A DNA stretch of 64,000 bases from Minisyncoccota bacterium (GCA_021734995.1 JAIPHX010000003.1:11969-75968), one strand, 5' to 3'. Shown: positions 1-50,631, counted from the first letter of the stretch. The notes: a model not told the origin generated them from the letters alone. Program-made: numbers and translations.

Positions 1-618
1 TCCAACTCCTACAGAAAGATTTTTTGCATGTAAATCTTTTTTTAGAAATGATATGATCTCTGCTCCAGCTTGAATATTTTCTTTGACAGTAGGGAAGTCA
101 GGTACAAGCATATATTCTTGTATATCTAAGCCACTATCCGCGTGCTTTCCTCCGTTGATAACATTTAGCATCAATGTCGGCATCTTTTTAAGATCAGAAT
201 TATTTTCAGCAAGCTCAGCAATATGTTCAAAAAGTTCTTTTCCTTTGGCTATCGCTTCTGCTTTAGCAAAGGCCATCGATACGCCGAGAATAGCATTTCC
301 TCCAAGGCGGGATTTATTGGTAGTACCATCTAGAGCAATGAGAGTGTCGTCTAGGCTTTTTTGATTAAATTTTTTTCCTATAATTGTATCCTTTATTTCT
401 TTTTGTGTATTTTGGATTGCTTTTAAAACCCCTTTTCCTCCATAGCGTAGAGGGTCATTGTCTCTGAGCTCTACTACTTCATTGATACCTGTACTAGCTC
501 CTGAAGGAACCGAAAAAACACCCAGTGCTCCATTTTGAAGCTCACAGGTCACTTCTAAAGTAGGATTACCTCGTGAGTCCAAAATTTCTAAAGCATTGAT
601 GTTTTTGATTATTTGCAT
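1..618 (-). CDS. eno: Enolase (phosphopyruvate hydratase), 5' portion; gene continues beyond window start
   Basis: Minus-strand translation from the ATG at 616-618 gives MQIIKNINALEILDSRGNPTLEVTCELQNGALGVFSVPSGASTGINE. This matches the conserved enolase N-terminus (ILDSRGNPTVEV...VPSGASTG). The listed + ORF 83..364 is antisense to it. Confidence 0.85.
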   Translation of the reverse strand, partial: MQIIKNINALEILDSRGNPTLEVTCELQNGALGVFSVPSGASTGINEVVELRDNDPLRYGGKGVLKAIQNTQKEIKDTIIGKKFNQKSLDDTLIALDGTTNKSRLGGNAILGVSMAFAKAEAIAKGKELFEHIAELAENNSDLKKMPTLMLNVINGGKHADSGLDIQEYMLVPDFPTVKENIQAGAEIISFLKKDLHAKNLSVGVG

Positions 619-3088: not shown

Positions 3089-4231
3089 TTATATATGTTC
3101 TACTCCAACTGCTTCTTCTATGTTTTTAAATCCATCTCTTTTTAAAAGTTTTACTAATCCTTGATTGATCTCACTGATCACTTGAGGTCCTTCAAAAATC
3201 ATTCCTGTAATCATTTGTAGAAGAGAAGAGCCAAGTCGAATTTTTCTATATGCATCTTCCGCGTTAAATATTCCACCTGAGCCGATGATAACAAAATCTT
3301 TCCCTTCTTTTTTCATTGGTAAGACTAAATTTTTGTACATATAGCTGATCATTTTGTCTGAGGAAGCGTCCACTGCTTTGCCGGACAATCCACCTTTTAT
3401 TGGGGTGTTTTTCCCTAGTTCCATTATTTTTTCCTTTCGCTTGGTTAAGTTTGTGCAGATGACGCCATCTACTTTGTGCTTTTTGATTATGGTTATGATG
3501 TTTTGCATATCTTCAAAAGACATATCAGGAGAAAGTTTTAGAAATACTGGCTTGGTAGGATTAGTGGTATCTATAACATCCAAAAGATAATCTAGATTGT
3601 GGGGGATTATGAATGGCTGACCACCAGAGGTGTTGGGACAAGAAATATTGATAGTCATATACTGACTATATGGATACATTGTTTTGAAAGCATGCAAATA
3701 ATCCAGCACTGCATTTTTTATATTTATATTTTCTTGGCAATTTGTCATTGCTACACTCATACCTATTGGAATTTCAAATTTTTGTCCTTCCAGTCTTTTG
3801 GCAATTTTGTCACATCCTTCATTTTTGAGACCATAATATACTGCTAGACTCTTTGCCTCTTTTAGTCTCCAAAGTCTTGGTTTTGGATTACCTTGGCAAG
3901 CTTTTCCTGTAATGGATCCTACTTCTGCAAAACCAAAGCCAACGAAAGGCAAAATACCAGTAAGCTTTGCGTCTTTATCAAAACCCGCAGAGAGTCCGAC
4001 TGGGTTTTCAAAATGTATATTAAATATTTTTTGTGAAAGGATTGGATTTTGATAATCAAAAAGTGCCTCGGTCATTTTTTTACCAAAAGAATATCTAGAA
4101 AGAAAAATGCCCATATCGGTCATTTTATCGTGCACTTTTTCTGGGTCTTCTAAAAAAAACATAGGCTTCAAAATATGCTTATACAACCCATGCGTTATTA
4201 TGTTTCTATATTCTACACTTTTTTCACTCAT
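3089..4231 (-). CDS. pyrD: Dihydroorotate dehydrogenase (quinone), class 2
   Basis: GFDKDAKL...GFGFAEVGSITGKACQGNPKPRLWRL matches DHODH family 2 signature motifs. Confidence 0.8.
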   Translation of the reverse strand: MSEKSVEYRNIITHGLYKHILKPMFFLEDPEKVHDKMTDMGIFLSRYSFGKKMTEALFDYQNPILSQKIFNIHFENPVGLSAGFDKDAKLTGILPFVGFGFAEVGSITGKACQGNPKPRLWRLKEAKSLAVYYGLKNEGCDKIAKRLEGQKFEIPIGMSVAMTNCQENINIKNAVLDYLHAFKTMYPYSQYMTINISCPNTSGGQPFIIPHNLDYLLDVIDTTNPTKPVFLKLSPDMSFEDMQNIITIIKKHKVDGVICTNLTKRKEKIMELGKNTPIKGGLSGKAVDASSDKMISYMYKNLVLPMKKEGKDFVIIGSGGIFNAEDAYRKIRLGSSLLQMITGMIFEGPQVISEINQGLVKLLKRDGFKNIEEAVGVEHI

Positions 4232-6260: not shown

Positions 6261-6332
6261 TGCGAGATCGTCTAATGGTAGGACAACGGTTTCTGGAACC
6301 GTCTATCTAGGTTCGAATCCTAGTCTCGCAGC
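6261..6332 (+). tRNA. tRNA-Gln (anticodon CUG)
   Basis: Manually folded cloverleaf. Acceptor tgcgaga/tctcgca, D-stem gtct/ggac, anticodon stem acggt/accgt with loop ttCTGga, T-arm ctagg-ttcgaat-cctag. No encoded CCA. Confidence 0.8.
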
Positions 6333-9121: not shown

Positions 9122-10387
9122 TTATTCAATTACTACACGCTTATTGATGAGTATCAATTTACTCGTAAACGATTGCATCAAATCTCTCTTTTCTTGAAGA
9201 GTTCCTTCTTTAAGAAGATATTTCATATAGTTTCTAACATCTAGTTTTGTCTTTGCTATTTTTTCGTCATTGGTTAGGTCTAATACTTTATTTCTAAACT
9301 CACTATATCTTTCAATTTCTTTTTCAAGTTTTTCTTTTATTCCAACATTATTTATATCTATCCGGTCAATGATTTCAAGTAGTTGGGAAATTAATTCTTC
9401 TTCGCGAATGTAAGTATTTTTACATTGTTTATCATTAAATTTAGTACAACCATAATAAATATATTTTGCTACACTTCCATTCGCTAGATTTTTATGTTTT
9501 TCATCAGCGGTAACTCCCGATTTACACATCCCACATTTTATTAGCCTAGTGAAAGCAAATTCTTTTTCAATTTTTTTGTCATTCTTTTTGGTGTCCAATC
9601 TTTCTTGAACCCTTTGAAATATTTCCTTACTAACTATTGGATCATGTCTTCCTAAGTACCATTTACCTGATTGTCTAGGATATTCAATCATTCCCATGTA
9701 AAAATTATTTCTTAGAATAACTTGGATATTACTAAGAGTTAAAGGTTTTCCGTTTCTAGTTGTAAATTTTACATCTTCTTTTGCCCATTTATATAATTTT
9801 CTTATACTTAAATTTTCATTTAAAGCTTTTTCAAATAATAAACGTACCACATGAGATCTTAATGGGTCTGGTATCACATGACATTTCATAGTCCTATCTG
9901 GATGATTAAGATATCCAGTAGGGGCGACGCTTGGCCAGAGCCCACTCTCTACTCTTGTTCTTAATCCTCGTTTTACATTTATACTTTTATTATCATTTTC
10001 TAATTTTGCTTGTGATCCAAGAATCATTAATAAAAATTTTTCATTTGGGTTGTTTGTGAATCGCTGACTATAAGTTCTGATTTCAATTAATTTCTTTTGA
10101 TCTAGTAAATCAACTATTGCTCCAAGGTCCCCAGCATTTCTGGCGAGACGATCTGGATGCCACACTAGAATTGCATTAAATTTCCCAATACGAATATCAT
10201 TTAGAAGTTGATTGTATACAGGTCTTTGTCCACAATCTTTTGCTGAGTGTGATTCTTTATATATTTCAACAATATTTAAGTTTTCTCTCTGAGATAAGGT
10301 GAGCATCTCCTTTATCTGAGAATCTATAGATAAAGCTTGTTTTTCCTCTGCCTCGCTCGATTTGCGGGCATATAAGCAGTATTTCAT
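9122..10387 (-). CDS. Large serine recombinase (resolvase/invertase catalytic domain + recombinase domain + zinc ribbon)
   Basis: YARKSSEAEEKQALSIDSQ (catalytic Ser) and LVWHPDRLARN motifs, with a Cys-rich C-terminal region (CGMCKS...YYGCTKF...C). The ORF could start 33 codons upstream at 10486. Confidence 0.75.
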   Translation of the reverse strand: MKYCLYARKSSEAEEKQALSIDSQIKEMLTLSQRENLNIVEIYKESHSAKDCGQRPVYNQLLNDIRIGKFNAILVWHPDRLARNAGDLGAIVDLLDQKKLIEIRTYSQRFTNNPNEKFLLMILGSQAKLENDNKSINVKRGLRTRVESGLWPSVAPTGYLNHPDRTMKCHVIPDPLRSHVVRLLFEKALNENLSIRKLYKWAKEDVKFTTRNGKPLTLSNIQVILRNNFYMGMIEYPRQSGKWYLGRHDPIVSKEIFQRVQERLDTKKNDKKIEKEFAFTRLIKCGMCKSGVTADEKHKNLANGSVAKYIYYGCTKFNDKQCKNTYIREEELISQLLEIIDRIDINNVGIKEKLEKEIERYSEFRNKVLDLTNDEKIAKTKLDVRNYMKYLLKEGTLQEKRDLMQSFTSKLILINKRVVIE

Positions 10388-10546
10388 AGTAATGGCTTCT
10401 GTTAGCTTGGGATTTATTAGGATGTTTGTCGCATATGTTTCCATACACACAACATACCGCGAACGTTTATTAAGTCTAGTAAACACATCGAAATGGAGCA
10501 GAAATTTTATAAAGTCAAATATAAAGATGTGATATAATCAACTTAT

Positions 10547-12160
10547 ATGAAAATCTCTAAAATTGAAGTTGAAAATTTTAAATCTATTGAAAAATATGAT
10601 TTTGACTTAAAAGACATTAATATTTTTATTGGTAAAAATAATCACGGTAAAACAAATCTTTTTGATGCATTAGATTGGTTTGATTCTGGAAAAACAGAAC
10701 CTTCTAATTATAGAAACAATGATAGGGCTTTGCTAATAAAAGTGAGATTACATTTCGTCGGAGCTCAGGTAGCAGTTAATGCACTTGAGGATGGTGCATA
10801 TAAAACAGCAATGATAAATGCCCTAGAAGGAACAGATGAGTTTATTGTTGAAAAAGACAGCGAAAACGATAAAAGAGTTTTGATTGTTAACGGCACTACA
10901 AGACCAAATCCAAGAGGTTTTGATTCTGCTCTAAATTATTTTTTACCAAAAATAATTTATGTAACAACAAAACAGCGTTTGTCTGATATTGCTGGTTATA
11001 AATCAAAATCTCCAATCGCAGAAATGTTAGGAGATGTCCTGAAAGATATGGTTGATAATGAACCAAAATATAAGCAATTTCTCGAACTTTTTGATGATCT
11101 TTTTAATGAGAGTGATTCTGTGTTTAGACAATCAGTGAACAACCTACAAGACAGAGTAGAATTTTATCTCGCAAAACAATTTGATGAAGCAGCTGAGGTT
11201 AAATTTCGAATTGAGAATCCTGCTATCGAAGATATGCTTAAGAAATTTGAAACAGAGGTTGATGACGGAATTAAAACAAAAGCTGAACATAAGGGGGATG
11301 GAATGCAACGAGCAGTAATGCTTGCAATTGTTCAAGCATATGCGGATTTTCGAAAAGAAAAAGGTATCGCTAGAACATTTACTTTTCTTATTGATGAAGC
11401 TGAATTACACTTACACCCAACAGCTCAGAGAGCTTTAAAAAATGCCCTCCGTGAGATTGTGGAAAATGAAGGACAAGTACTTATAAATTCACATTCCCCA
11501 ATCTTTGCAAACGAGCTTTTTACAAATCAAAAGATTTATAAAGTAGAAAAGGAAACAGGAGTTTCTCAAGTTAATGAAATTATCACTGAGCAAGAGCAAT
11601 TAGACTCTATTTACCAACTTCTTGGAGGTAGTCCGCAAGACATTTTATTACCAAGTAATTTTATAATTGTTGAAGGACAATCTGAATTCCATCTATTAAA
11701 AAAGCTCATTGAAAAACTATATTTTGATAACAAAAAATGTTCAGCCATTAAAATACTTTTCGCTCGGGGTGATCATGAAAAACATAAAGATATTTATCAT
11801 TGCATTCATCAATGTTATACTCCATTACTTACAAACGGTATTTATAAAAATAAGGTAGTATTTCTCATGGATAGTACAGATCCATCAAAACAAGCCTCTT
11901 TTGATACCTTCAAGGCAACACATAGTTGGCTTATTGAAGGAGAACAACTACATGTTCTAACTGTTCCAGCTATTGAAATGATTTACCCTGATTCATTTAA
12001 AAAAACAAAACTAGAAGTTGATAAAATGACCAATCCAAAAGAAAAAATAAATATTGCTTTAGGTGTAGCAAATTCAATCAACACCAAACAAGAGCTTCAA
12101 GATAAAATGCCAGCAATTTTTAACATGTTAGAGAAAGCAATAGAATTTGCTTATGAATAA
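10547..12160 (+). CDS. OLD-family nuclease (ABC-type ATPase + C-terminal Toprim), solitary class-1-like
   Basis: Walker A GKNNHGKTN. Walker B/D-loop LIDEAELHLHP. H-loop LINSHSPIF. A Toprim-like IIVEGQSEF glutamate is followed by an MDSTD acidic motif. Confidence 0.65.
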   Translation: MKISKIEVENFKSIEKYDFDLKDINIFIGKNNHGKTNLFDALDWFDSGKTEPSNYRNNDRALLIKVRLHFVGAQVAVNALEDGAYKTAMINALEGTDEFIVEKDSENDKRVLIVNGTTRPNPRGFDSALNYFLPKIIYVTTKQRLSDIAGYKSKSPIAEMLGDVLKDMVDNEPKYKQFLELFDDLFNESDSVFRQSVNNLQDRVEFYLAKQFDEAAEVKFRIENPAIEDMLKKFETEVDDGIKTKAEHKGDGMQRAVMLAIVQAYADFRKEKGIARTFTFLIDEAELHLHPTAQRALKNALREIVENEGQVLINSHSPIFANELFTNQKIYKVEKETGVSQVNEIITEQEQLDSIYQLLGGSPQDILLPSNFIIVEGQSEFHLLKKLIEKLYFDNKKCSAIKILFARGDHEKHKDIYHCIHQCYTPLLTNGIYKNKVVFLMDSTDPSKQASFDTFKATHSWLIEGEQLHVLTVPAIEMIYPDSFKKTKLEVDKMTNPKEKINIALGVANSINTKQELQDKMPAIFNMLEKAIEFAYE

Positions 12161-12202
12161 TTAATACTAGCTTATTTCCTACTTTTTATATATATTTATG
12201 TT

Positions 12203-13006
12203 ATGAATGTACTTACATTTTTACCCAAAAAAGATATAGAGAAATTTATAGATAAAGATGCTTACCTTGTTATTGAATATTTATTAAGGAAAGTAGCCTT
12301 TTCTCAACCAGAGGTAAGGAATAAATCTGAACTTTCTGGTATCCAAATAACAAAAGAGTTTTTGGAGGATTGGATAGCTCAAGCATGTAATTTAACAAAA
12401 GTAGGAGCTGGTAATTATCCTATTGATGTATATAGTCAAAATAAGTATGGAATAGATGTTAAATTTTTGACAGCAAAAATAAATAAGAGTGGTGATTATA
12501 CAAATAGCTATTCAAATGAAACTTCACTTAGCCAAAACTTTAAAATTGCCGGATTAGATTTAGATCAAATGTTTGCCAGTAAGAGATACGAAAATATATT
12601 ATCAGCTTGGATAAAAATTCTTGAAACTAAAATAAACATACCTATCAAAGATTTTAAACTGAAAAAAATTTATTATTTTATTTTTATTAGAGCTGGAAAT
12701 AAAGTTTCCTTAGCAATAGCTGATGTTAACAATAAAGAAATAAAAAAACTTACTACAAATAGATCAACAGATTCTTCTGTTTTTGTTCAGAATTTCATTG
12801 AAGATAAATATGGTAATGTAAAAATATATAAAAGTAAAAAAAGAATGGAACTTAGAGTTTTTCCTAAAAAATTAGAAGAGGATAAAAAAATGATCTCTTG
12901 GAATTTTAAAGATTTATATCCAGATATAATTTCACTTAGAGACGTAATTAAACATGAAGAGATAAAAGAGCACACTAAAAAACAGTTCAAAAAATTCTTT
13001 TCTTAG
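12203..13006 (+). CDS. Putative Type II restriction endonuclease (PD-(D/E)xK candidate)
   Basis: Convergent with, and 1 bp from the stop of, the C5-MTase gene. Candidate motif NYPID...GIDVKFLTAK (PD-x12-DVK). No other recognisable domain. Confidence 0.4.
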   Translation: MNVLTFLPKKDIEKFIDKDAYLVIEYLLRKVAFSQPEVRNKSELSGIQITKEFLEDWIAQACNLTKVGAGNYPIDVYSQNKYGIDVKFLTAKINKSGDYTNSYSNETSLSQNFKIAGLDLDQMFASKRYENILSAWIKILETKINIPIKDFKLKKIYYFIFIRAGNKVSLAIADVNNKEIKKLTTNRSTDSSVFVQNFIEDKYGNVKIYKSKKRMELRVFPKKLEEDKKMISWNFKDLYPDIISLRDVIKHEEIKEHTKKQFKKFFS

Positions 13007-13007
13007 A

Positions 13008-14585
13008 TTACTCCATCGCTTTCATCATCTGTTTAGCAACAGCTTCAACAACCGGAACACTAACTGAGTTCCCAAATTGTTTATAAAGTGCTGAATCTGC
13101 TAGATTTGGTAATTTAAAGTTATCAGGAAATCCTTGAATTCTAGCACATTCTCTTGGTGTTAATTTTCTTATCCCTTTTTTATCTTTTATTATCGGCACA
13201 TTGTGTCCACCCATACCCATATTAGCTGTTAGTGTGGGGCAAACACCGCTTTTATTTTCCCTGACATATTGTCTTCTCCATTGATATACCTTTCCTACTT
13301 CTTTTACGTCTTTTTTAAGTTTTTCAAAAAGAGGTTTACCATTATAGTAATATTTCTCAGGAACATTTTTCTCCAATAAATCCGTAATCTTTTTTGTTAA
13401 TTTAACTGGTTGTGGAAATTCAAATTTATCATAATAATCTTTGTTTTTAAACCCGACTATATAGATACGTTCACGATTCTGGGGGACATTACCATACTCC
13501 ATGGTATTTAATACTTTTGCTTTAACATGATAACCCAAGTCGTGTAAGGTTTCTTCGATTACTTTGAAAGTATTGCCTCCATCATGACTTTTTAAATTTT
13601 TTACATTCTCAAGCATAAAACCTTCTGGATTTTTTGCCCTAATAATTTTTGCTATATCAAAGAATAGATTTCCTCTATTTTTTGGATCATCAAATCCTTT
13701 GCGATATCCTGCAATTGAAAATGCCTGACAAGGGAAACCTCCCAAAATGAAATCAAATTCAGGTAAGTCATCAATTCCTAGTTTTCTTATATCTTCAACT
13801 ACAAGTTTTGAGTCTTTGAAGTTAATATCATATGTTTGTTTACATGGAGCATCAAAATCATTTGCAAAGACTGTTTTAAATCCTGCATTTTCAAACCCCA
13901 TTCTTATTCCTCCTATACCAGCAAATAAATCTATTGTTTTAAATCCATGCTTAGTTTTCTTTTGAGACTTCTTCTCTTCTTCCTGTTTTGGGCTACTGAT
14001 TATTTGAACAACCACACCTCTAACCTCAACTTCTTTTCTGTAAAAAGGAAGCATCGATTGATTTCTAGGTTCTAGTCTAAATTTGTTTTTTTCTCTGTAT
14101 AATTTTTTTAATGTTGCTTCATTATCATCAATAATAGCAACAACCGTTTGTCCATTTTCAGCTACTGACTGTTTTTTAATCACCACGATGTCTCCATCAA
14201 ATATTCCTTCTTCAGTCATACTGTCTCCTTGAACCCTGAGAGCATAGTATTCTTTTGGGTTCTTAATACTAGAATTTATTATTGAAATAGTCTCTGTTCT
14301 ATCCTCAATAGCTTCTATTGGCTGTCCAGCGGCGATACTTCCCATTACTGGTATTTCTAAAACTTTAAATGTTTCGATTTTGGGTTCTATACTTCTAGAT
14401 AAATTCTCTGATTTACTTATGTATCCTTTTTCTTTTAATGCGTTTACATGTTCGTGAACAGTAGAGATAGCCTTGAGTTTGAATTTCTTACGTATCTCAT
14501 CATTCGTGGGGGATATGCCATTTTCGGCTATGTATGAGTTAATAAAATCCAATATTAGTTTTTGTTTTTTTGTTAATGATTGCAT
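13008..14585 (-). CDS. LexA-like repressor (HTH + S24 autopeptidase) fused to DNA (cytosine-5)-methyltransferase
   Basis: The N-terminal 200 aa include a winged HTH, cleavage-site-like IAAGQP, the Ser nucleophile GDSM and NGQTVVAIIDDNEATLKKL (LexA Lys region). The C-terminal 325 aa carry MTase motif I DLFAGIGG, motif IV GGFPCQAFS, motif VI ENVKNL, QNRERIYIVGF and motif X GNSVSVPV. The ORF is continuous. Confidence 0.8.
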   Translation of the reverse strand: MQSLTKKQKLILDFINSYIAENGISPTNDEIRKKFKLKAISTVHEHVNALKEKGYISKSENLSRSIEPKIETFKVLEIPVMGSIAAGQPIEAIEDRTETISIINSSIKNPKEYYALRVQGDSMTEEGIFDGDIVVIKKQSVAENGQTVVAIIDDNEATLKKLYREKNKFRLEPRNQSMLPFYRKEVEVRGVVVQIISSPKQEEEKKSQKKTKHGFKTIDLFAGIGGIRMGFENAGFKTVFANDFDAPCKQTYDINFKDSKLVVEDIRKLGIDDLPEFDFILGGFPCQAFSIAGYRKGFDDPKNRGNLFFDIAKIIRAKNPEGFMLENVKNLKSHDGGNTFKVIEETLHDLGYHVKAKVLNTMEYGNVPQNRERIYIVGFKNKDYYDKFEFPQPVKLTKKITDLLEKNVPEKYYYNGKPLFEKLKKDVKEVGKVYQWRRQYVRENKSGVCPTLTANMGMGGHNVPIIKDKKGIRKLTPRECARIQGFPDNFKLPNLADSALYKQFGNSVSVPVVEAVAKQMMKAME

Positions 14586-14671
14586 ATTGATTAAATTATT
14601 TGATTGCGCTACAATTCTATTATAACCGAATATATACCGAAAGTCTAGGCAATATAGGTATAAATAATTAA

Positions 14672-16180
14672 ATGGCTAAACCTAAAATAACAAGAACATA
14701 TGGACCAATACACTTCGAAGATTTAGACCCGAAGCGCTTTGAGGATTTAGCTAGAGAATTAATATATGACTTTAAAGATTGGCAGACAATAGAAGCAACT
14801 GGTAGAGGTGGTAATGATGGGGGTTTTGATGTTAGGGCGTATGAAAAAACTTCTGACATTTCTAATGAAGAAGATAGCGAAGAAAATGAAGAAAAAGTTG
14901 CCCATCCCATGGATGGTAATTTATGGATGATTCAGGGAAAAAGAGAGAAGGAAATTGGTCCTAAAAGAATAAAAGAGATACTAAAAGATGTAGATTCAAA
15001 AAATCCCCCATATGGATATATGTTAGTCGCCTCGGCAAATTTTTCTAAAGATTCTTACGATTCTTTTAGAAAAGAATTAAAAAAGAAAGGAGTAATGGAA
15101 TTTTATCTCTGGGGTAAAGCGGAGTTAGAAGATATGTTACATCTTCCAAAAAATGATCGCATACTATTTACCTTCTTTGGTATTTCGTTGGTAAGCAGAA
15201 GACGGTCTAAATCTGCTGAAGTTAGATCTAAGTTAGTTATTAAGAATAAAATTTATAAAACTCTTGGTGGTAGTTGGGAGTCTTTAAATGACACCTCTGT
15301 TTTAGTCAGAGATATAGATGATATCCATTATCCGTATAAAAATAAATATAAAGATTTTGATAAAAAGCCAAAATGGAAAGAGTATTTTGCTTATGACTAT
15401 CATCCCTTAGGTGTATGGTTCCATACACGCAAATACTACGCTTACGTTGATTTGGCAAAAAAAGAATGGGACTACACTTCTGAAGTAGATTTATTATATC
15501 GACAGGTAAAAAGTGAGAAAGAAAAGGAATTAGAACTTAATAAACGCAATGAAATAAAAACTATATGGGAATTTTTCCCTAATTCTCACAAAGGATATTT
15601 TAACCTAGATGGATTAATAGATTTTGAAAACATACTTTTAGTTGATGATAAGGGAGATAGTTTACACACATTCCCTCACTTCTACGCTGAATATAAAGAT
15701 AAATCTGGACCTTTTGTTGGAGGTTGGGAAAGTTTTACTTTTGAAAACAAAGAGAGAAATATTACTTTAACAAAAGATTGGAAAAGAATAGAGATGTTTC
15801 CAAAAAAGATAAAGAAAATTCCCAATGGTAAAATCCATACAAAGAAAAAAATTATCTTCGATGAAGTTACATTAAAAAATCTAAAGGATTACGACCAAAA
15901 CCTTTTTGCCTTATATGACACAGATGATAAATATAAATTTTTGAATCAAAGAGATATAATCTCGGTGGAAGGTGCAGGAGATGAAGAATATAGTAAAACT
16001 TTTTTACAAATAACTCATAAGTTTAAAGTTAAGGTTAAAGATTATTTAGATCAAAGTAGATTTGGTTGGTTACATAATAGAATAAAAGAACAGCTTGGAA
16101 GGGACTTTGATGAAAACGAAGAAATAAATGTTTATGAATTCAAGAGGGTCTACAAGCGAGAATTTGATGTAAGTGGATAA
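14672..16180 (+). CDS. Mrr-cat-like restriction endonuclease domain protein (N-terminal nuclease + about 340-aa uncharacterised C-terminal region)
   Basis: TGRGGNDGGFDVRA, IQGKR, MLVASANFSKDS and YLWGKAELEDML align with the Mrr_cat consensus (tgrsgDgGiD...VQcK...vTtssFt...LidgeeL). Confidence 0.65.
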   Translation: MAKPKITRTYGPIHFEDLDPKRFEDLARELIYDFKDWQTIEATGRGGNDGGFDVRAYEKTSDISNEEDSEENEEKVAHPMDGNLWMIQGKREKEIGPKRIKEILKDVDSKNPPYGYMLVASANFSKDSYDSFRKELKKKGVMEFYLWGKAELEDMLHLPKNDRILFTFFGISLVSRRRSKSAEVRSKLVIKNKIYKTLGGSWESLNDTSVLVRDIDDIHYPYKNKYKDFDKKPKWKEYFAYDYHPLGVWFHTRKYYAYVDLAKKEWDYTSEVDLLYRQVKSEKEKELELNKRNEIKTIWEFFPNSHKGYFNLDGLIDFENILLVDDKGDSLHTFPHFYAEYKDKSGPFVGGWESFTFENKERNITLTKDWKRIEMFPKKIKKIPNGKIHTKKKIIFDEVTLKNLKDYDQNLFALYDTDDKYKFLNQRDIISVEGAGDEEYSKTFLQITHKFKVKVKDYLDQSRFGWLHNRIKEQLGRDFDENEEINVYEFKRVYKREFDVSG

Positions 16181-16448
16181 CTTAACTACACAATAATTTA
16201 AATTCAAGCTAAGCTTTTAATACCTCTAAAAATGAGGTATAATTTTAGTACAAGTGAATATGAGTAGCCTAAACCATTGAGAAATTGGTGGCATGGTGAA
16301 TAAGTCGCGTTCAACATAAAAACCCTATCATTAGGGCGTTGAACGCGCTGTATGAGGAAACTCATATATGAGACTTCGGTCTCTACCTAGTGGTAGGATT
16401 TTTGCGTCTTATCATAGGATTTATTACTAAAACGCAAAAATAATTTTT

Positions 16449-42510: not shown

Positions 42511-42820
42511 GTGTGTTTTTGGAGTTATATAAAAATACCCCAAAAATTATCCTGCTCGGGAAAACATAAAAATAATTGGCAGTCGGACTTGTTCTCTTTA
42601 GTTTTCAAGAAACTAGAGACTTACCGTAGCGGCACTGTACCGGATTCTCACCGGTTTCCCCCATTATTTTTCTTAATTTTTAAACGACTTACATATACAT
42701 TGTACCTTTATTGGATTGCGTATGTCAACCTTGTGTTTTGTACCCCAAATTTGTAGGTGTGACGCTTGCAGTTATCTTATATCTAAAGCATTTTTACTTT
42801 AAATATGTATAATATGAAAG

Positions 42821-48893: not shown

Positions 48894-50470
<1,577 letters not shown>

Positions 50471-50631
50471 TTTGAAACTCTCTAGATTTATCTAGATTAT
50501 AGAGTCGATATTATGTCGCTCAATTGACGACATAATGCCTTTTGTAAGGGCTAATTACAAGGACTATTATTCTAGTCTTTAAAAGAATATGACACATTGG
50601 AAAGACTTGAAGTTATACGTCGCAAGACGGA

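Follow-up and report, generated by a model that had tools for sequence, protein, structure and literature searches.

How a Type II restriction-modification (R-M) system spares its host when methylation lags, as in repair synthesis, recombination or a newly entered cell, is a long-standing question. The known answers are C-proteins, helix-turn-helix (HTH) extensions of the methyltransferase (MTase) and antisense RNAs, to which Type I systems add restriction alleviation. Here we describe a gene, found in a 64,000-nucleotide stretch of DNA from a Minisyncoccota bacterium (GCA_021734995.1, JAIPHX010000003.1:11969-75968; hereafter the window), whose predicted product joins a complete LexA to a C5-cytosine MTase. 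Among the closest described systems are the SsoII, EcoRII, MspI and ScrFIA MTases, C5 enzymes with an N-terminal extension that binds their own promoter and represses the MTase gene (M), and the predicted fusion can be likened to them. However, their extensions are short, simple HTHs with no protease, whereas that of the fusion is a LexA of 200 amino acids (aa) with an intact self-cleavage apparatus, and because this apparatus is retained its repression is predicted to be reversible by a signal. In addition, SsoII activates the gene of its restriction endonuclease (REase; gene R), a link not seen for the fusion, and we do not regard the fusion as a member of the SsoII-type class.

With LexA itself (TIGR00498) the fusion shares the winged HTH, the Ala-Gly site, the Ser/Lys dyad and a putative operator of the lineage's tandem type at its own promoter. 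It differs in adding a 310-aa C-terminal enzyme, in being apparently mobile, in sitting with a REase-like gene and in belonging to a separate clade in a rough tree; control of repair genes by the fusion finds no support, with one box in the 64-kb window. Lambda CI-type repressors and UmuD use the RecA*-stimulated Ser/Lys self-cleavage switch that is predicted for the fusion and, unlike it, are stand-alone regulators or polymerase subunits. Orthologues of the fusion are paired with the REase families of the Bsp6I and NgoFVII systems, whereas the REase-like gene of the window belongs to an unrelated PD-(D/E)XK family; M.Bsp6I, a characterised enzyme, is not known to carry a LexA module. Type I restriction alleviation works by ClpXP proteolysis of HsdR and not by MTase derepression, so that its likeness to the outcome proposed below, a shift to protecting unmodified host DNA, is a functional analogy only. 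The original prediction took a fusion of an S24 peptidase to an MTase to be uncharacterised, and the searchable literature likewise gave us no account of LexA joined to an MTase; outside its reach lies a study of SOS in Patescibacteria (Environ Microbiol 19:3465, 2017). The standard review of R-M regulation mentions LexA just for toxin-antitoxin systems (PMC3874152). The fusion combines two known kinds of element, a self-regulating MTase and a LexA switch, in sequences that are public but mis- or half-annotated.

Architecture and conservation of the fusion

The gene is a single uninterrupted reading frame (Table 1), and by its sequence the product is a complete LexA, with winged HTH and S24 domains, joined through a flexible linker to an M.HhaI-like C5 MTase. 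A full LexA module and a Dcm-type MTase in one frame had been read from the sequence beforehand, and Pfam, NCBIfam and the quoted motifs all agree with this: the N-terminal half matched LexA_DNA_bind and Peptidase_S24 and the C-terminal half DNA_methylase. In the NCBIfam profile search, the 'lexA' equivalog TIGR00498 scored 173.8 bits over residues 1-196 (cut-off 111) and the 'dcm' model TIGR00675 scored 350 bits. The LexA half carries IAAGQP (residues 84-89), GDSM (120-123) and TLKKL (158-162); in the MTase half, FAGIGG (221-226), FPCQ (284-287), LENV (325-328) and QNRER (369-373) provide motifs I (FxGxG), IV (PCQ), VI (ENV) and VIII (QxRxR) in canonical order. The nearest solved structures are the Thermotoga and E. 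coli LexA proteins (3k2z, 1jhh) for residues 1-195 and M.HhaI for residues 210-518 (E 7e-65); the same structure-sequence comparison returned no PDB chain that contains both halves.

We scanned one genome per species, which yielded at least 527 relatives, and examined the best 80 loci. Among these, 59 distinct loci, nearly all from Patescibacteria and including the complete Saccharibacteria chromosome CP075337.1, contained the intact fusion. The same three domains, in about 525 aa, recur in every one of the top 120 database clusters (77-95% identity). Named clusters belong to Paceibacterota, Parcubacteria, Moranbacteria, Kaiserbacteria and Yanofskybacteria; their annotation reads 'LexA repressor' or 'cytosine methyltransferase', and the NCBI name is 'transcriptional repressor LexA'. 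In the alignment of 60 fusions, identity falls to 30% in the HTH and to 0% in the linker (residues 197-214), while Ala86, Gly87, Ser122 and Lys160 are invariant (60/60), as are MTase motifs I, IV, VI and VIII. Since the scissile bond and the dyad are invariant amid a diverging HTH and linker, we infer selection on cleavage competence.

The original prediction treated the fusion as a singular oddity, and here it was wrong, because the search for homologous fusions recovered, besides the 59 orthologues, 52 fusions of the same module to other MTases. At E <= 1e-30, an exhaustive search with residues 1-200 returned 396 representatives, the nearest of which (45-63% identity) are themselves N-terminal modules of proteins of 295-890 aa, and standalone LexAs of about 200 aa lie mainly under ~48% identity. 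LexA_DNA_bind and Peptidase_S24 occur together in all 52 long representatives, joined to N6_N4_Mtase (30), Eco57I-type (7), D12/Dam-like (5), N6_Mtase (5) or C5 (3) domains. Ala-Gly, Ser and Lys are again invariant (52/52), so that the catalytic residues are kept in both sets of fusions. Named members of this class come from Patescibacteria, plus one from Omnitrophota. In a neighbour-joining tree of the LexA modules, which is rough and indicative only, a single clade of mixed MTase classes takes in about 50 of the 54 fused modules, and the standalone LexAs fall outside it; this suggests a portable LexA cassette and not repeated fusions of host lexA genes.

The same MTase family also occurs in other arrangements. 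At 17 further loci it is not fused to LexA (63-73% identity); among these it carries a RadC/JAB-like N-terminal fusion in L076 and L082 (571 aa; HNHPSG motif by eye) and a MerR/excisionase-like N-terminal HTH in L070 (388 aa). In L073 (5986-7553), lexA (197 aa, 43% identical) and the MTase are separate, overlapping genes behind a tandem repeat of another sequence (ATATTAG-N4-ATATTAG, period 11), which could be the unfused counterpart of the arrangement. In L075 the reading frame is broken.

The putative operator and the REase-like partner

The region between the fusion and its divergent neighbour (14586-14671), which had been pointed to as a promoter region, does contain a putative operator (Table 1). 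Read on the minus strand, a -35 element TAGACT (14647-14642) and a -10 element TATAAT (14624-14619) flank a 17-nt spacer, TTCGGTatataTTCGGT (14641-14625), that is wholly taken up by a tandem repeat TTCGGT-N5-TTCGGT. Searching up to 130 nt upstream of each gene with the strict pattern TTCG[GTA]-N6-TTCG[GTA], we found the box before 39 of the 59 fusions (44 when exact variant repeats are counted) and before none of the 17 unfused MTase copies, against a background of 0.002 per 130-bp window. Moreover, at the same promoter position in divergent fusions, the half-site tracks the recognition helix: STVHEH goes with TTCGGT, STVHQH with TTCGGTAAA or TTCGT, and STAH[HY]Y with TTTCTA. The fused LexA domain therefore very probably binds this operator.

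Four standalone lexA genes carry the same type of box just before the -10 element (L079, TTCGTtttttgTTCGGT; L106, TTTCGGTtttgTTTCGGT; L105; L108), and an article citing Sanchez-Osuna et al. (2017) counts the LexA of Patescibacteria among those for which the recognised site is a direct repeat (PMC7739468). Because the motif matches that before standalone lexA genes, we take the operator to be the LexA box of the lineage. Host LexA, where present, thus probably binds and represses the fusion promoter too, which would wire the module into the SOS regulon. We also considered a palindromic LexA box of the Gram-positive type (GAAC-N4-GTTC); by eye there is none in the intergenic region, where the conserved element is the direct repeat.

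A second cis-element, TGTGGAWAA(C), which is the reversed DnaA-box consensus, sits ~71-86 nt before the start codon of the fusion in L003-L063. It is present upstream on the coding strand in 31 of 59 loci, in 28 of them ~10 bp 5' of the -35 element (background 0.04 per kb), with an additional copy directly before the ATG in L084. In L025 and L086 the LexA-box promoter is inverted and faces the divergent upstream gene, with the box still directly before the fusion ATG, an arrangement that suggests roadblock-type repression together with control of the neighbour. The L086 fusion, of LexA to N6_N4, comes from a complete genome of Nealsonbacteria and is accompanied by convergent genes. The LexA-Eco57I-type fusion of L083/L084 likewise has a box of this type, in the promoter TTGAC-TTTCGGTtttcTTTCGGT-ATAGA, and a convergent 302-aa gene.

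On its other side the fusion meets a convergent gene, the two reading frames ending 2 bases apart with no terminator-like site between them. The motif and fold of this 267-aa product make it REase-like and of a new sequence family unrelated to Bsp6I and NgoFVII. An abutting partner gene (-22 to +66 bp) is found in 57 of the 59 fusion loci, convergent in 55. At least eight unrelated gene families alternate in this slot beside the conserved MTase: Bsp6I-like (19), c3 (10), NgoFVII_C-type (9), c6 (6), PDDEXK_5 (6), the family of the window (4-5), c11 (3) and c15 (3). Four of the at least eight families have no Pfam family. These observations support the prediction that the fusion is the M of a Type II pair with the convergent REase-like gene, as the original prediction had it.

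Two partner families have known specificities, GCNGC for Bsp6I and GCSGC for the C-terminal domain of NgoFVII, and since orthologues are paired with them, the target of the MTase should equal or overlap GCNGC/GCSGC. GCNGC also shows the strongest depletion among the palindromes tested for the window (25 observed vs 67.5 expected, ratio 0.37), and 5-methylcytosine at GCNGC is the probable product. CCNGG is depleted in the window too (27 observed vs 59 expected, ratio 0.46), a hint of another R-M pressure. In 8 loci the fusion has a divergent Vsr gene upstream.

LexA control had also been extended to the REase gene, and this we reject: the LexA box is all but absent upstream of REase genes, with one near-match in 55 regions, and at least 11 relatives carry a C-protein-like HTH_3 gene after that of the REase. 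The window has no C-protein reading frame between 12160 and 12203. The 40-nt segment 5' of its REase-like gene (ACTAGCTTATTT...TATATATATTTA; Table 1), which is also kept in L054 and L026, holds no LexA box and is likely the promoter of that gene itself. A box of the canonical type does stand before a different gene in L047 (3347-4114, minus strand; TTGAT-TTTCGTtttttgTTCGT-GTATAAT at ~4160-4190), which from its N-terminal sequence we take to be a DpnI-family methyl-directed REase; the L047 fusion itself uses the variant TTTCTA operator, unlike this adjoining gene.

Table 1. Features of the window, numbered from its first nucleotide; domain, site and promoter assignments are predictions.
Feature	Position	Strand	Basis or description
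LexA-C5 methyltransferase fusion gene	13008..14585	-	uninterrupted 525-aa ORF (open reading frame); Pfam and NCBIfam domains; 59 intact orthologues
LexA winged-HTH DNA-binding domain, residues 1-64	14394..14585	-	PF01726, E 4e-16, full profile length
Recognition helix of LexA domain, residues ~40-47 (ISTVHEHV)	within 14394..14585	-	covariation with operator half-site
Peptidase_S24 autopeptidase/dimerisation domain, residues 79-193	14007..14351	-	PF00717, E 4e-30, full profile
Predicted cleavage site Ala86-Gly87	14325-14330	-	invariant in orthologues
Ser122, nucleophile	14220-14222	-	invariant in orthologues
Lys160, general base	14106-14108	-	invariant in orthologues
Lys/Glu-rich linker between S24 and MTase, residues 197-214	13944..13997	-	least conserved segment, 0-89% identity
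C5-cytosine DNA methyltransferase domain, residues 215-521	13023..13943	-	PF00145 1-323/324, E 7e-96
Putative operator, tandem direct repeat TTCGGT-atata-TTCGGT, period 11	14625..14641	-	sole exact match in window
Putative promoter of fusion gene	14619..14647	-	best sigma-70-like match in 12000-14800, 10/12; position conserved in orthologues
Convergent 267-aa PD-(D/E)XK restriction-endonuclease-like gene	12203..13006	+	P73, D75, D85, K87; motif and fold
Conserved 40-nt segment 5' of REase-like gene	12163..12202	+	kept in window, L054 and L026
tRNA-Gln, apparent island boundary	6261-6332		
PDC-S53 helicase	after tRNA-Gln		PADLOC 1262 bits
Large serine recombinase	9122-10486	-	78% identical to counterpart in syntenic locus L003
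Mrr_cat-domain protein, 502 aa	14672-16180	+	N-terminal Mrr_cat nuclease domain, E 9e-6
LOOT RNA motif	16266-16384	+	Rfam RF03000, 74.5 bits, E 4e-12
S24-helicase, 698 aa	19439-21535	+	Schlafen-group-3/DUF2075-type helicase, residues 196-533, E 1e-69; Peptidase_S24, residues 574-680, E 2e-18
AdoCbl-II riboswitch	42569-42679	-	
16S rRNA, complete	48895-50472		

A proposed damage-responsive circuit and its alternatives

We propose, as a joint claim held with moderate confidence, that the locus is a Type II R-M system, horizontally mobile and lodged in a defence island on the chromosome of a member of Candidatus Pacebacteria (Patescibacteria), in which autorepression of M would be relieved by RecA*-stimulated self-cleavage to give a damage-triggered boost of methylation. 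The fusion would dimerise through its S24 domain, place its two HTHs head to tail on the tandem half-sites and occlude RNA polymerase, so that the level of M would be kept low and self-limited, as for SsoII-type MTases. RecA filaments on single-stranded DNA, which can form after DNA damage of any kind, cuts by the REase of the system itself at unmethylated sites among them, would then lead the S24 domain to cut Ala86-Gly87. The DNA-binding part of ~86 aa would separate from an S24-MTase part of ~439 aa, repression would be lost, and MTase synthesis would rise until the damage ends. The net function would be a Type II analogue of restriction alleviation. Because unbalanced R-M activity induces SOS, as the review cited above states (PMC3874152), the simplest purpose of such a circuit would be a feedback that raises methylation under damage. 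Stronger transcription of M might also hamper the convergent R, given the close stop codons and the lack of a terminator, and any effect of the fusion on R would be indirect, for example via such convergent transcription.

Several points weigh against this proposal. What we say of self-cleavage, of its dependence on RecA, of DNA binding and of the specificity of methylation is deduced from sequence. The conservation of the cleavage residues, read as selection for cleavage competence, is silent on its trigger and consequence. The full-length AlphaFold2 model is poor (mean predicted local distance difference test score 63, ~30 in the S24 region), because only sequences 77-95% identical could be supplied, and it was not used. 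The GCNGC assignment comes from the neighbours of relatives and one 64-kb window, and the TGTGGAWAA element is conserved yet unexplained and missing from the window copy. If the S24-MTase fragment is degraded, as it could be, the outcome would be the opposite of that predicted. The adaptive logic is also debatable, as more M during phage attack would let phage DNA escape restriction.

Of the alternative explanations, one holds that the LexA module is a borrowed dimeric DNA-binding autoregulator, a larger counterpart of the SsoII/EcoRII HTH, that sets the level of M both in establishment and at steady state and is never physiologically cleaved. It would account equally for all of the operator evidence, and it fits both the MerR-like HTH on the same MTase family in L070 and the N-terminal HTH autoregulation of MTases, which the review treats as established (PMC3874152). 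However, plain DNA binding and dimerisation need neither a catalytic dyad nor a scissile bond, and the Ala-Gly, Ser and Lys positions do not vary in any of the 60 orthologues or the 52 other fusions despite an HTH that drifts to 30% and a linker that drifts to 0% identity. We therefore consider this explanation unlikely.

A damage-triggered suicide is less probable still, and would run the other way: cleavage would destabilise the MTase as an 'antitoxin', methylation would fall under lasting RecA* signals, such as those of replicating phage, and the REase would kill the cell, in the manner of abortive infection. R-M pairs act as toxin-antitoxin systems, according to the review (PMC3874152). 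The defence-island setting (OLD, the PDC-S53 helicase, Mrr-like and Sie-like proteins, the S24-fused helicase) would suit such an outcome. In addition, an N-terminal fragment ending in ...IAA presumably resembles a ClpXP-type degron, and E. coli LexA fragments are degraded by ClpXP and Lon. Set against this, cleavage would also derepress the promoter and raise synthesis, methylation lasts until replication, which SOS slows, so that killing would be slow, and the MTase domain, M.HhaI-like and complete, should be functional once the HTH is gone.

Alternatively, the fusion might itself be the master repressor of the cell's SOS response, or a paralogue by which the host SOS regulon is reshaped or SOS promoters are targeted for methylation, with the R-M link secondary. 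The match between its operator and the box of standalone lexA genes fits this, as does the NCBI name 'transcriptional repressor LexA'. A patchy distribution resembling horizontal gene transfer (77-95% identity across classes of the candidate phyla radiation (CPR), vs 75% for GuaA), an abutting REase-like gene in 57 of 59 loci and the clade of fused modules apart from standalone LexAs in the rough tree all speak against it. So do the absence of further exact boxes from the 64-kb window besides that at the fusion promoter, and divergent operator variants that suggest insulation and not a shared regulon. We give this explanation, like the suicide, only a small probability. Finally, an artefact in which adjacent lexA and M genes were merged by a frameshift or an assembly error, as the separate genes of L073 and the broken frame of L075 might suggest, has a negligible probability, being refuted by 59 independent assemblies of species-representative genomes from different projects that keep one frame and a conserved linker length, and the LexA of L073 is just 43% identical and hence a different arrangement.

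Genomic setting and significance

The defence-island reading of the window rests on the gene content between the tRNA-Gln, followed by the PDC-S53 helicase, and the cellular genes past ~22 kb (Nramp, DsbD/thioredoxin, GuaA and ClpB). Besides the REase-like gene and the fusion, the island holds the large serine recombinase, an OLD-family nuclease, the Mrr_cat-domain protein, a Sie-like protein and the S24-helicase. GuaA of the window, through which the host was placed, is 100% identical to a protein of a Candidatus Pacebacteria metagenome-assembled genome and its next relative is at 75%; that GuaA drops to this level while the LexA-MTase stays at 77-95% across CPR classes points to horizontal spread of the module. 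Serine recombinases lie near the module in about a dozen loci. We rejected the possibility of a prophage in which a serine integrase neighbours the LexA-MTase as a CI-like lysogeny repressor, since the genes past 22 kb are cellular and the LexA part is present in none of the 18 viral loci (contigs) that carry this MTase.

Several neighbours deserve mention in their own right. The Mrr_cat gene is divergent from the fusion, with an 86-bp intergenic region common to both; since no related locus contains the Mrr_cat gene, it is a window-specific insertion, which places a putative modification-dependent nuclease next to a 5-methylcytosine MTase. A LOOT RNA motif lies between the Mrr-like and Sie-like genes. 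The S24-helicase carries its Peptidase_S24 domain at the C-terminus, with a weak GIY-YIG match and weak Nhi/AbiO-like matches in PADLOC, and may be another damage-switched defence protein. The window also includes a riboswitch and an rRNA gene (Table 1). In L108/L109, a standalone 208-aa LexA (P0192) whose promoter holds a TTTCGT/TTTCGC tandem repeat is divergent to an operon of a cyclic-oligonucleotide-based antiphage signalling system (CBASS; CD-NTase and Cap15), and in this lineage further defence systems may be under regulators of the LexA type.

A self-cleaving LexA within an MTase would tie the sensing of DNA damage directly to the level of protective methylation, and the LexA fusion recurs on at least five MTase families. 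A broader and more doubtful extension, which we offer tentatively, is that a portable LexA cassette with its operator has been placed on MTases of every class in Patescibacteria, making the self mark an output of SOS and allowing cross-regulation between R-M systems and the SOS response of the host. Patescibacteria/CPR make up a large share of bacterial diversity and largely lack CRISPR. The split naming of these proteins as 'LexA repressor' or 'cytosine methyltransferase' miscounts CPR SOS regulators and could distort regulon reconstructions, and the conserved, portable operator-repressor pair may serve as a damage-inducible switch. If true, the fusions would give Type II R-M systems a general, hitherto unrecognised circuit for controlling autoimmunity, and LexA a second large role.

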